Source of the DNA: an uncultured Candidatus Saccharibacteria bacterium
GTDB lineage: Bacteria; Patescibacteriota; Saccharimonadia; Saccharimonadales; JAGQNJ01
Direction of reading: 5' to 3'
Assembly (NCBI GenBank): GCA_965231045.1
Contig: OZ246406.1
Coordinates: forward strand, 1 to 50,294
DNA length: 50,294 nt
The notes under the pieces are model-generated. The model had not been told where the DNA came from, ran no database searches, and was given only the letters and a program-made list of their open reading frames with translations. A program made the translations under genes and the position numbers. Shown here in pieces: positions 41,714 through 45,564 of this stretch; within the stretch, counting starts at the first letter, position 1; every line of letters starts with the position of its first letter.

Positions 41714-43135
41714 GTGGATGTGAGTGCAAGATTTTCAAAGCTAATTAAAGAAGGAAAACCACATGCAAAGGTGTTGGCGGTACAAGACAATCTGGTTATT
41801 ACTTCGTCACTGCCTGGGGCTAAGGTTTATGGAAGTGTTCAGTTTGCCGAAGGTGCTAAAGGTGTTATTTGGCAAATTAACGATCATGGCTATGCTGTTT
41901 TACCCCTAAATAATCACACTGTAAGGCCGGATGAACCAGTGGTCGTAAAAACTGATGAACTGTCACTTGGCGTTGGAAAAGAGCTGCTGGGCAGAGTTGT
42001 TAATCCGATAGGGCAAGCGCTTGATGGGCGAGGCTATATTGAGCCTACCGCACATGTGCCATATTTTAGGGCGGCACCAAGCTTCGGAGAGCGTGAGGAG
42101 CTTACAGAACAACTAGAAACGGGTATTACTATGGTTGATACACTGCTGCCGGTTGTTAAGGGCCAACGTATTGCAATAATGGGTGACAGTAAGTCTGGTA
42201 AAACTGGTTTTTTGAGCCAAGTTGCGATACACCAAGCAAAGCAGGGTCGTGTGGTTGTATATGTTTTGGTTGCCAAGCGTCGCCAAGAGATGAATCGTTT
42301 GATTGAAAAATTTGCTAACAGTGAGCACATGGATAATATAGTACTCGTTGTCACAACCAGTTCAGACCCGCTGGCGCTCGGTGTGCTTGCCCCATATGCT
42401 GGCTGTGCAATTGGTGAGTACTTTTGGCATCATGGTCAAGACACGGTTGTCATCTATGATGATTTTACGTCTCAAGCGAAGCTATATAGAGAAATGTCAC
42501 TCATGCTTGGTAACAATCCAGGCCGTGAAGCATATCCGGGTGATATGTTTCATGTTCAATCGGCACTTCTTGAACGAGCAGGAAAGCTCAAAAGTAATGG
42601 CGCGAGCCAAACAGTGCTGGTGACTGGCTTAACCCCAGGTAATGATCTTACTGGCTATCAATCAACTAGCCTTATATCAATGACGGATGGACAGATTGTA
42701 TTTGATACCAACTTATTACAGACCGGAAGACAACCAGCTATTAATAGTGGACTTTCAGTTAGTCGTATTGGTGGACGTGTCCAGGATGCAAAAAAACAGG
42801 ACCTCGTGCAATCAATTATCAAGCAGCTTTCCGATTATAAAAGTGCAAAAGAGTACAGTAGATTTAATGATCAATCTAGTGAAATTATTGAGCGTGAGAT
42901 TCTATTGGGTGAACAGATTCAAGAAGCCTTTAATCAGCGAAGTAATGAATGGTTTTCAATTGCTGAACAAACAGTACTTTTGAATGCGATACTTACTAAC
43001 AAAAGTAATAACGATCTAAACATAGAAAAATTAAAAGAACTTGTAAGAAAAAACTATAAAATTTTAGCTTCTGCAGATGAAAAAACGATCGATAAGGTAA
43101 CAAAAATCTTGGTAAAAGAGGGGAATAAATCATGA
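41714..43135 (+). CDS. atpA: Divergent F1 ATPase alpha-like subunit
   Basis: GQRIAIMGDSKSGKT, GREAYPGDMF, LLERAGK, TDGQI, PAINSGLSVSRIGG. Confidence 0.9.
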   Translation: MDVSARFSKLIKEGKPHAKVLAVQDNLVITSSLPGAKVYGSVQFAEGAKGVIWQINDHGYAVLPLNNHTVRPDEPVVVKTDELSLGVGKELLGRVVNPIGQALDGRGYIEPTAHVPYFRAAPSFGEREELTEQLETGITMVDTLLPVVKGQRIAIMGDSKSGKTGFLSQVAIHQAKQGRVVVYVLVAKRRQEMNRLIEKFANSEHMDNIVLVVTTSSDPLALGVLAPYAGCAIGEYFWHHGQDTVVIYDDFTSQAKLYREMSLMLGNNPGREAYPGDMFHVQSALLERAGKLKSNGASQTVLVTGLTPGNDLTGYQSTSLISMTDGQIVFDTNLLQTGRQPAINSGLSVSRIGGRVQDAKKQDLVQSIIKQLSDYKSAKEYSRFNDQSSEIIEREILLGEQIQEAFNQRSNEWFSIAEQTVLLNAILTNKSNNDLNIEKLKELVRKNYKILASADEKTIDKVTKILVKEGNKS

Positions 43136-43986
43136 GACGGTCAGTTCTTTATGATAAGAAGCACCAAGATGTCGTGGCAATTAAGCAAACAGCTAGTATT
43201 TTTGAGAATATTGCTTCAATTCGGCTGAGACAAATAAAAGAACAAGTTCTTGCATCTAGGGGATTCTTTAATAAACTGTGGTCAATTTATACTAGCTTGC
43301 GTATCGATGAAAAGCACTCGCATGCATTTGAGCATAAGGCTAAGATTGATCGTGAAGTTATGGTTTTGATTAGTTCGAATTTTAGCCTGGTTGGTCAAAT
43401 AGACGCTAAGTTACTAGATGTTTGCCTTAAGGAATATAATCCCAAAACAACTGATCTTATTATGATAGGCGATCATGGTAAACGCTTACTGAAAGAACGT
43501 GATATTACTCCTGCACAAAGTTTTCCGCTACCAGATATAACTAAGCCGATTGACATTGAAAATGTTGTCGAGATACTTACGCAGTACAAAGCGCCAGTTG
43601 TTTATTACCCAAGCTACATATCCCTAACTGAGCAAGAAATAGTGAGCTTTACCTTAATCGAGGCGGTACAAACTTTAAGTGATGTTGAGGAACGTGAGCA
43701 TCCAGAAGGTTTAATTTATGCCCAAGAATGCATTTTTGAACCATCTGAAGAGGAACTTATTGCATACTTGGAATCGATGATGATTCAGGCAATATTAACA
43801 GAGGTAATCTTGGAAGCAAGCCTAGCCCATTTTGCCAGTCGTTTTACAGCTATGAGTTTTGCTGAGGATAGAGCGGGTGATATAGAAAAAGTACTAACTA
43901 GAACAGCTAAGCGCCTACGTCGTTTTGAGCATGATGAGCTGGATAGAAGTTATCAAATAAAGTCCAAAATTGGAGTAATTGCTTGA
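43132..43986 (+). CDS. atpG: Divergent F1 gamma-like subunit
   Basis: Between alpha and beta; N-terminal [16 protein letters not shown] helix and [22 protein letters not shown]-terminal helix. Confidence 0.8.
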
Positions 43987-45314
43987 TGAAAAAATTAAAA
44001 GCAAAGATTCTTAGCGTAAAAGGGGCTGTCACGCGAGCTCACTTTGAAGGTAGCGAGCCAAAACTAGGTGACTTGCTTTACTTGGGAGAAAAATCCGAAG
44101 TTCGATTCATAGTTATGCGGCTTGAACCTGAGAATATACTAGTTGCTTTGTGCTTGAGTGACGAAGCCTTAGGGGCAGGTCAGATTATTATAGGTGACGG
44201 AAAAGTGCTAGAATTGCCCGCCGGAAAAGATGTGATGGGTCGTGTTTTCAATGCACTTGGCGAACCAATAGATGGTCTAGATTTATTAATTAACGAAGAT
44301 ACCGAGTGGGTAGAAGCTACCCACGAGACAGATGTACATTACATACCTCCAATCAGCACAAATATTATTGAAACAGGCATAAAGGCCATAGATTTTTTTG
44401 CCCCATTCGTTAAAGGCTATAAGATTGGCATCGTAGGCGGGGCTGGTGTCGGTAAAACTGTTCTTACAACTGAGCTTATTCATAATGTCGCCAAAACTGA
44501 CCAAGGGGTTGCCTTCTTTACCGGTATTGGCGAGCGTATGCGTGAAGCAAAAGAGTTACATACAACTCTAAAAGATGCTGATCTATTAAAAAACACTGTG
44601 TTATATCTTGCGCAAATGAATGAGAACGCTGCACTTCGTTTTTTGGTTGCTAAAAGTGCAGCTTCTGTCGCCAGGCACATCAGGGATAAATATAAAAAGG
44701 ACATTCTGTTCTTTGCAGATAATACCTATCGTTTTGTCCAGGCAGGCAATGAACTTTCGACTCTAATTGGTGATATATCATCAGAGGGGGGTTATCAGTC
44801 AACTCTATTTACAGACCTTGGTAGGTTTGAGGAAAATCTTAGCTCGTCTGATCGAGGTACGATTACCACTGTTCAATCTGTTTATGTACCGGCTGATGAT
44901 GTCACAGACCCAGCTGTTACCGAAATATTTTCGCAGCTAGATTCTGTAGTCGTATTGTCTCGTGAGGTAGTCGAGCAGGGACGCTATCCTGCAGTCGATC
45001 TACTAGCAACTACTTCAGCGTTGCTAACAGAGGAAATTGTGGGCGAGCGTCACGTGCGTCTTGTGCGGGAAGCTCAAACTATTCTACACAAGTACGAATC
45101 ACTTCAGGGTACAGTGGCGATAATTGGTAAAAGTGAACTATCGGTTGCAGATCAGAGATCATATAAGCAAGCCGAAGAATTGATGGAGTTTTTTACTCAG
45201 CACATGTTTGTAACGGAAAGAAATACTGGCAAAAAAGGTGAGTATGTCGATCGAGAACAAACATTGCGCGGTGTTGAAAAAATACTTAAAGATGGTGGTC
45301 AAGATGAAGCTTAG
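43983..45314 (+). CDS. atpD: Divergent F1 ATPase beta-like subunit
   Basis: [45 protein letters not shown]. Confidence 0.92.
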
Positions 45315-45564
45315 CAAAAATAAAACTTTTCCAGTCACGGTGTTTTCACCTTTTCAAACATTTTTCGAAGGCCCCGCAATGCTGGTGCAGGCAACCAATA
45401 AAAGTGGTCCATTTGATGTACTAGAAGGGCACGCCAACTTTTTATGCTTGCTTTCTCCGGGTACGCTGCGTATTCATTCACCGGCAAAAACAGAAGAATT
45501 TAGTATTCAAAAGGGGATTCTCCAGGTTGTTAATGGACAAACCTACGTATTCTTAAATATATAA
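45304..45564 (+). CDS. atpC: F1 epsilon-like subunit, N-terminal beta-sandwich only (86 aa)
   Basis: VTVFSP...FFEG...[12 protein letters not shown]...PG.L...GILQV; ATG 45304 overlaps the beta stop region. Confidence 0.75.

Follow-up and report, generated by a model that had tools for sequence, protein, structure and literature searches.

The window analysed here is a stretch of 50,294 nucleotides from an uncultured Candidatus Saccharibacteria bacterium (contig OZ246406.1, positions 1 to 50,294) and forms the start of a single 840-kb contig, which is 98.5% complete. It contains a gene cluster, designated cluster W, that encodes proteins resembling the alpha, gamma, beta, and epsilon subunits of F1-type ATPases and a partner protein related to subunit c, hereafter the c-like protein (Table 1). 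Cluster W specifies an F1-type head with its catalytic residues intact, a full central stalk, and a partner derived from subunit c, with no ion path and no epsilon brake. It is probably a catalytically competent, divergent F1-type ATPase paralogue, i.e. the core of a system without subunit a, in which unregulated hydrolysis of ATP drives a surface-facing c-like partner.

Cluster W is a paralogue and not the ATP synthase of the cell. Three alpha/beta pairs are present in the genome, namely those of cluster W, of a second divergent cluster (cluster X; 435960-441008, minus strand), and of a canonical operon (193120-200362). Subunit a is absent in and near the W operon; the genome has a single subunit a, in the canonical operon, which gives the sole PF00119 match. 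The canonical operon comprises the genes for a, c, b, delta, alpha, a 92-amino-acid (aa) open reading frame (ORF), gamma, a 91-aa ORF, beta, and epsilon, and its products carry the motifs GDRQTGKT, EELSDDD, and ARQAAITQEI and an epsilon of 143 aa. The 92- and 91-aa ORFs (G000 C1:196827-197105 and 198045-198320, respectively) have no counterparts in clusters W and X. In cluster X, genes for a b-like protein (a coiled coil and a single transmembrane helix) and for a delta-like protein accompany those for alpha, gamma, beta, and a short epsilon; searches matched X_164 to the C-terminal part of delta (E = 7e-5) and X_221 to a b subunit (E = 8e-4). Clusters W and X are 51, 38, 37, and 35% identical in beta, alpha, gamma, and epsilon, respectively; for both, identity to the canonical alpha and beta is only 36-44%, and W gamma gave no BLAST match to canonical gamma. 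At 741 and 798, the scores of the canonical paralogues exceed the NCBIfam equivalog cut-offs by a wide margin. No W or X subunit reaches any of the curated cut-offs, i.e. those of the canonical, N-ATPase, and mycoplasma Type 2 and Type 3 families; W alpha scores 316 against the atpA cut-off of 484 and 359 against 554 for NF009884, and W beta scores 387 against 463 for atpD.

The motifs of the W subunits were checked by alignment to solved F1 structures and then by family alignments. A sequence-only reading of the window had proposed that the catalytic residues are intact, and the alignments confirm the P-loop (GGAGVGKT) and GERMRE of beta as well as the arginine finger of alpha (SVSRIGG opposite SVSRVGG). 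Also kept are the P-loop Lys/Thr, the Asp of Walker B, the DNTYRF Arg, and the YVPADD Tyr. The changes that it listed in the DELSEED region of beta (KSELSVAD, opposite DELSDED/EELSEED of canonical betas) and in Walker A of alpha (GDSKSGKT opposite GDRQTGKT) are real, as is the loss of the C-terminal helical hairpin of epsilon, which aligns only with residues 3-78 of Escherichia coli epsilon, i.e. the beta-sandwich. At the canonical GQK position alpha reads AKR (AKRR), so that no catalytic Glu has been gained and alpha is still non-catalytic. Two further observations are confirmed with a qualification. The alpha N-terminus is indeed ~11 residues shorter than that of PS3 alpha, but it is shortened rather than absent and bears a conserved motif. 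At the C-terminus of gamma, AAITQEI is replaced as described (aligned to residue 264, with KRLRR opposite NRARQ), but the fold and the C-terminal helix are full length. The AlphaFold 2 (AF2) model of gamma (pLDDT 79.8) has helices at 3-55 and 206-281 and matches C. thermarum gamma with a TM-score of 0.81-0.83 and an rmsd of 3.1 A (Foldseek); with its full N- and C-terminal coiled-coil helices and its Rossmann-like foot, gamma is thus changed at the C-terminus in sequence and not in architecture. The substitutions go beyond chance, as the same ones occur in 21 related operons and the canonical operon of this genome is unchanged; the canonical F1 of the same organism does not have them, so that the case named by the sequence-only reading as its own refutation, canonical F1 subunits of the CPR (candidate phyla radiation) with these changes, does not apply.

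Acidic residues of DELSEED are needed for inhibition by the C-terminal domain of epsilon rather than for torque. The joint loss of this domain and of the acidic DELSEED residues therefore indicates a loss of regulation and not of coupling; the brake and its docking site disappeared together. The claim that coupling is altered is not supported, since beta retains its catch loop (DDVTD), gamma its basic catch residue and full-length fold, and the c-like protein its invariant GRNP loop. By contrast, the proposal of an uninhibited, hydrolysis-only motor fits the evidence: subunit a is absent, the c-like protein has no ion-binding carboxylate, and the epsilon C-terminal domain and acidic DELSEED are both lost family-wide. 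The prediction that the W enzyme is unregulated and works only in the direction of hydrolysis is well supported by the sequence and its genome context. What the sequence-only reading had missed is that W is one of three alpha/beta sets of the genome.

The c-like protein begins with a signal/anchor helix, continues with a beta-rich domain that is exported, and ends in a two-helix hairpin with a GRNP loop. It is 37% identical to subunit c of the same genome over 41 aa around the common GRNP loop (BLAST). A profile of the hairpin searched against PDB gave seven matches, all of them subunit c (best E = 0.0034), and in the AF2 model (pLDDT 89.5) the hairpin superimposes on c subunits with TMt 0.8-0.86 and an rmsd of 1.4-1.9 A; the relationship of the hairpin to c is thus drawn from modest sequence statistics (profile versus PDB) and from structure prediction. 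The G-R-N-P loop is invariant across 57 c-like sequences. In E. coli, the polar loop of subunit c (R41-Q42-P43) contacts gamma and epsilon, and the invariance of GRNP argues that the contact between the c-like protein and the rotor has been retained. Where c has its ion-binding carboxylate, the c-like protein has a hydrophobic residue instead; this and the absence of subunit a indicate that the complex is neither driven by an ion gradient nor pumps ions. The best structural matches of the exported domain (residues 37-179) are capsid decoration or cement proteins of phages, i.e. Borrelia phage BB1, T1, TW1, and the phi29 head fibre, and these matches are weak (E = 3e-4, TMt 0.46-0.53); such a resemblance agrees with the phage-tail-fibre character (Peptidase_S74) of the giant genes nearby. 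The window also carries a second c-like gene. Most c-like genes of X-type operons match it best, and, given this likeness, it is probably the partner of cluster X, located outside the window.

W gamma, used as the query against 301 genomes of the phylum, matched in 142 of them, a count that overstates the F1-like family because canonical gamma also matches weakly. The family alignments comprise 21 operons, namely the regions around 20 gamma-like matches and one W-type orthologue, in which the usual gene order is c-like, b-like, delta-like, alpha, gamma, beta, and short epsilon. Common to all 21 are E(N/S)ELSxxD in beta, (A/G/S)K(R/K) in place of GQK in alpha, a short alpha N-terminus, and an epsilon of 79-123 aa; most also have GDxKxGK[ST] in alpha and RxKRxxxDERLKE at the gamma C-terminus. 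Cluster W shows the same signature motifs and the same arrangement of a c-like gene with a GRNP hairpin upstream of alpha, gamma, beta, and short epsilon. An F1-like operon without subunit a was found at 19 of the first 20 CPR loci (all but L032), in most cases with c-like, b-like, and delta-like genes, and none of the F1-like operons whose gene content was checked contains subunit a. A pattern search for the c-like hairpin found it in 162 species-level genomes, almost all Saccharimonadia, and in 63 of the 80 Saccharimonadia loci that were kept the ATPase operon lies downstream of the c-like gene. Among 1.84 billion proteins, a gamma-like profile retrieved 139 representative clusters at E <= 1e-30. 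Canonical beta and F1-like beta occur together in 13 of the 15 genomes searched; G181 and G022 have F1-like beta only, with no PF00119 match and no canonical beta in either genome (98-100% complete). These two organisms appear to be without any ATP synthase yet retain the F1-like ATPase. A CPR operon of this kind, F1-like and without subunit a, was not found described in the literature searched; in Southlakia the predicted F-type ATP synthase is reported to be dispensable, and a second set is not discussed (Wang 2023, PMC10633639).

Relationships were examined in an alpha and beta tree of 71 sequences (FastTree LG+G), a single fast tree whose deep nodes have SH-like support only. W groups with its orthologue (support 1.0), and their sister is the X-type clade (0.96 in beta and 0.99 in alpha), the support for W and X together being 1.0 in beta and 0.985 in alpha. 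Operons of other CPR classes make up a second clade (0.96 and 0.67), and monophyly of all CPR F1-like sequences is weak (0.2). Two mycoplasma Type 3 clusters, reached by a 16S primer match and a class-wide family search, group with canonical sequences (support 0.95 in alpha; weak in beta), apart from the CPR clade. Cluster W is a younger paralogue, duplicated within the Saccharibacteria-type lineage, and its genes are under purifying selection (pN 0.13-0.15 against an orthologue, with pS saturated).

No b-like or delta-like gene is present in the W operon, in which alpha (from 41714) comes right after the c-like gene (to 41711). In the W-type orthologue of GCA_046350735.1, whose gamma is 57% identical to W gamma, the order is fibre, c-like, b-like (185 aa), delta-like (147 aa), alpha, gamma, beta, epsilon, and fibres; this orthologue (L040) and 63 of the 80 Saccharimonadia loci have b-like and delta-like genes, which lie between c-like and alpha. 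In a relative with ~80% identical gamma, alpha directly follows the c-like gene, as in the window. The stator genes were therefore lost recently and secondarily in W, and the short alpha N-terminus is no sign that a stator is lacking, because sister operons encode b-like and delta-like proteins. The N-terminus of W alpha (ARFSKLIKEGKP, window 41714-41764) was compared with those at G000 C1:439809-439859 (minus strand) and L040:8582-8630, and fits the X-type motif HFxxLVxxGxP better than the orthologue does; F-x-x-L-(I/V)-x-x-G-x-P is kept by W alpha and is missing from the orthologue, which retains its own delta-like gene. The retained motif is a hint, and no proof, that W uses the b-like and delta-like proteins of cluster X, and the alpha N-terminus may be adapted to share that stator.

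The W reading frames are all intact and translationally coupled. The epsilon ATG is preceded at 5-10 nt by a GGTGG ribosome-binding site, and the epsilon orthologues have 84 aa. The c-like gene has a GTG start and its own AAGGGGAG ribosome-binding site upstream, which, together with the terminator-like hairpin upstream of the gene, suggests that the five genes from c-like to epsilon constitute their own transcription unit. The gene upstream of the c-like gene (window 40095-40808, plus strand) encodes a 237-aa, Lys-rich protein with a single transmembrane segment, homologues of which (42-45% identity) adjoin F1-like operons or c-like genes in three distant genomes (L038:12353-12943, L039:5070-5726, and L144); this protein may be a further component of the system.

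Cluster W lies between two giant fibre genes. Homologues of giant fibre 1, which carry Peptidase_S74 and YadA_head, flank W-type operons in relatives, and giant fibre 2 has a 57%-identical orthologue 3' of epsilon in L040; a fibre follows epsilon at four more loci (L107, L116, L138, and L153). All W-type loci examined (four further assemblies) are flanked by fibres of the Peptidase_S74/YadA-head type. At 10 of the 80 loci, a giant fibre gene homologous to those of the window comes no more than 600 bp after a lone c-like gene, and the second c-like gene of the window and giant fibre 1 form the same pair.

Table 1. Features of the window around cluster W
Feature	Position	Strand	Remarks
Second c-like gene (285 aa)	29749-30606	+	Immediately 5' of giant fibre 1
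Giant fibre 1 (2856 aa)	30859-39429	+	ORF; context only
Terminator-like hairpin, 12-bp stem	40824-40852	+	Between the 237-aa gene and the c-like gene; consensus scan only
c-like partner gene (277 aa)	40878-41711	+	Ends two bases 5' of alpha
Alpha-like (473 aa)	41714-43135	+	PF00006, E 5e-62; non-catalytic
Gamma-like (284 aa)	43132-43986	+	PF00231, E 9e-28; 4-nt overlap with alpha
Beta-like (443 aa)	43983-45314	+	PF00006, E 8e-59; 4-nt overlap with gamma; catalytic
Short epsilon-like (86 aa)	45304-45564	+	PF02823, E 2e-13; 11-nt overlap with the end of beta
Giant fibre 2 (>1542 aa)	45667-50292	+	ORF runs off the window; directly downstream of epsilon; context only

In the mechanism that we propose, ATP hydrolysis would turn, or exert torque on, gamma and epsilon, together with a putative ring of c-like subunits, relative to alpha3beta3 (and to the b-like and delta-like proteins where present). 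The exported domains of the c-like subunits would face the cell surface, and the work would be delivered outside the cell; W might borrow the b-like and delta-like stator proteins of cluster X. Rotation, operation by hydrolysis only, and an output at the surface are thus what we infer from this set of genes. Several points weigh against the proposal. Pfam scans of single c-like hairpins gave no PF00137 match, and the E-value of the hairpin profile is modest. There is no subunit a to hold a stator, and the W operon itself has no stator genes, so that productive torque would need borrowed b-like and delta-like proteins or another anchor. Most X-type operons have no adjoining fibre gene, and the link to fibres is therefore frequent but not universal. 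A more far-reaching version, which is speculative and rather unlikely, is that of a CPR rotary surface motor, in which the F1-like head spins or twists a putative c-derived ring whose exported domains hold or actuate the giant S74/YadA-like fibres, moving, retracting, or drilling adhesins into the host. If true, this would amount to ATP-driven movement of adhesins by episymbionts, and to functional convergence with the gliding motor that Mycoplasma mobile derived from F1.

The association with fibres could also be explained by an ATP-driven device for the export, unfolding, or assembly of giant fibres, comparable to FliI-FliJ-FliH of type III secretion, that feeds or tensions single-pass surface proteins without spinning a ring. 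W-type operons are flanked by giant fibre genes, the 10 loci described above pair lone c-like genes with fibres, and giant single-pass proteins adjoin all six operons of other CPR classes; moreover, the b-like protein, alpha/beta, and gamma parallel FliH, FliI, and FliJ, respectively (established homology; operon comparison in the preprint 10.64898/2026.10.01.756066). This explanation is nevertheless quite improbable, as the full rotor set is retained (a gamma of the usual length, the beta-sandwich of epsilon, and a c-type hairpin whose loop is invariant), the head is a hetero-hexamer with a non-catalytic alpha as in rotary enzymes, and no export-gate homologue was seen. The presence of one complete Fo in the genome and the lack of b and delta in the W operon would be compatible with an alternative F1 head that is mounted on the canonical Fo (a/c/b/delta), e.g. 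as a proton-pumping ATPase isoform in fermentation. Such an isoform would not account for the c-like gene of the W operon itself, for the dedicated b-like and delta-like genes of its relatives, or for genomes with an F1-like operon but no Fo, and divergence is greatest in gamma and epsilon, the very subunits that dock on the c-ring, W gamma being too distant from canonical gamma for BLAST; we regard it as very unlikely.

Decay of a functionless duplicate, with the b-like and delta-like genes, the epsilon C-terminal domain, and the motifs lost under relaxed selection, would fit the scores of all subunits below the curated family cut-offs and the loss of stator genes in W. It is extremely improbable in view of the intact, translationally coupled reading frames, the retention of every catalytic residue, and the low pN against an orthologue, and because the arrangement without b-like and delta-like genes is conserved in the relative with ~80% identical gamma. 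We give equally little credence to an N-ATPase or a mycoplasma F1-like X0 ATPase gained by horizontal transfer. W beta scores about as high against the alt_F1F0 (390) and MSC_0618 (369) models as against atpD (387), but these scores are far under the respective cut-offs (752 and 570), the mycoplasma Type 3 sequences group with canonical ones in the alpha tree and not with the CPR clade, and gene order and accessory genes differ, there being no protein with 12 transmembrane segments, atpQ/R, a, or c in W. A divergent, hydrolysis-driven paralogue with a surface-facing c-like partner thus remains our preferred reading.

The closest known analogue of the CPR system is the mycoplasma F1-like X0 ATPase (Type 3), encoded by the clusters MSC_0618-0624 and MMCAP2_0575-0581 (Beven 2012, PMC3369863; Berlureau 2026, PMC12994834). 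In both systems, an additional set of alpha, beta, gamma, and epsilon is found beside a genuine F1Fo in a tiny host-dependent bacterium, subunits a and c are missing, and the alpha-like subunit lacks the N-terminal helix (mycoplasma) or is shortened (W). In both, moreover, the partner protein has a signal peptide, a large portion outside the cell, and a C-terminal pair of transmembrane helices with a short connecting loop, and both are genetically linked to surface proteins, which are MIB-MIP in the mycoplasmas. Membrane ATPase activity has been demonstrated for the mycoplasma enzyme. The tree gives no support for a sister relationship, and W beta and alpha score 369 and 210 against the MSC_0618 and MSC_0619 cut-offs of 570 and 520, respectively. 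The mycoplasma clusters encode a protein with 12 transmembrane segments and a cytosolic 19-kDa protein, both absent in W, and the mycoplasma cluster in L058 differs from W in gene order and has extra genes; b-like and delta-like genes occur in the CPR family but not in the mycoplasmas. Moreover, the mycoplasma epsilon-like protein keeps two C-terminal helices, and a DELSEED signature was reported for the cluster (PMC3369863). The mycoplasma hairpin has no GRNP loop and is detectably similar in sequence neither to c nor to the CPR hairpin. Different ancestry, accessory genes, b-like and delta-like genes, and the epsilon helices thus set the CPR system apart from the mycoplasma family.

The G1-ATPase of M. 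mobile (Type 2; MMOB1660/1670; PDB 9io5) is similar in being F1-derived and in performing mechanical work on giant surface proteins rather than ATP synthesis, and is reported to form dimers that occur in cytoplasmic chains with PGK (PMC8406192, 10.1101/2024.06.11.597861). W beta is, however, closer to canonical beta (338 bits) than to G1 beta (253 bits), the NCBIfam scores (311 and 275) are well under the cut-offs (850 and 600, respectively), and the N-terminal extension of G1 beta (~300 aa) is missing from W beta (443 aa). With the canonical F1Fo, cluster W shares the alpha, beta, gamma, and N-terminal epsilon folds, the alpha-gamma-beta-epsilon order, and all catalytic residues, and its family shares the c-type hairpin and stalk proteins of the b and delta types. 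It differs from canonical F1Fo in having no subunit a, a c-like protein with a ~150-aa exported domain in place of the carboxylate-bearing c, an epsilon without its C-terminal domain, a DELSEED region mostly stripped of acidic residues, S-K for R-Q in the alpha P-loop, and AKR for GQK. N-ATPases (TIGR03305/TIGR03324) likewise represent a second, early-diverging F-type operon beside the main enzyme, but they keep a and c with Na+/H+ sites and atpQ/atpR and have a beta-epsilon-first order, in contrast to the alpha-gamma-beta-epsilon order of W, whose scores (390 versus 752 and 300 versus 750) are about half the cut-offs.

To our knowledge, repurposed rotary F-type ATPases, beyond ATP synthases and ion pumps, are known in one form only, the mycoplasma F1-like ATPases. 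One of these powers gliding, and another is needed for antibody cleavage. The CPR system is apparently a second repurposing of an F-type ATPase, independent of the mycoplasmas. It is spread across the CPR, and its partner protein, derived from subunit c, extends to the cell surface. Provided that the motor is active, ultrasmall episymbionts would have in it an ion-independent route from ATP to mechanical work at the host interface, and the loss of every brake on hydrolysis in the family would be accounted for. There is also a consequence for annotation: in 9 of 13 sampled CPR genomes with both betas, "ATP synthase" labels also cover a set that is unable to make ATP.

Giant genes were also seen beside the F1-like operons of other CPR classes. 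At all six such loci (L033-L038; G181, G243, G272, G183, G260, and G022), a giant gene lies on the opposite strand, divergent from the c-like gene, and encodes 728 to >2026 aa, the ORFs being cut by the locus ends. Four of the five giants scanned begin with a cytoplasmic MerR-type helix-turn-helix domain (two in L038), followed by one transmembrane helix at about aa 120-240 and then by >1000 residues without a Pfam match; it is odd for a giant protein anchored in the membrane to have a DNA-binding head.

Several individual loci deviate from the usual pattern. L032 (G009:C1:167000-186000; operon 6764-11850) contains a third kind of F-type paralogue, the beta of which groups with canonical sequences (support 1.0); its epsilon has 86 aa, its gamma looks F1-like, and its alpha P-loop reads GEKKVHKA without GKT. 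The genome of L032 also has a normal canonical beta (L068). In L159 (CP064960.1), alpha and beta are each present as two ORFs, which could reflect frameshifts or decay, and L148 carries a second c-like gene and a canonical-like alpha fragment 3' of epsilon. The long beta of L039 (764 aa) was considered as a case of a G1-like extension and rejected, as the extra sequence consists of low-complexity tails. Finally, Saccharimonadia-type c-like/F1-like operons were found in oddly assigned bins, i.e. L120 (DATIHE010000038.1, "Nanoarchaeia archaeon") and L163 (DATLJN010000091.1, "Magnetospirillaceae"), and likewise on a contig labelled "Parcubacteria" (L111; OY970378.1); these three taxon labels are likely to be binning or labelling errors.

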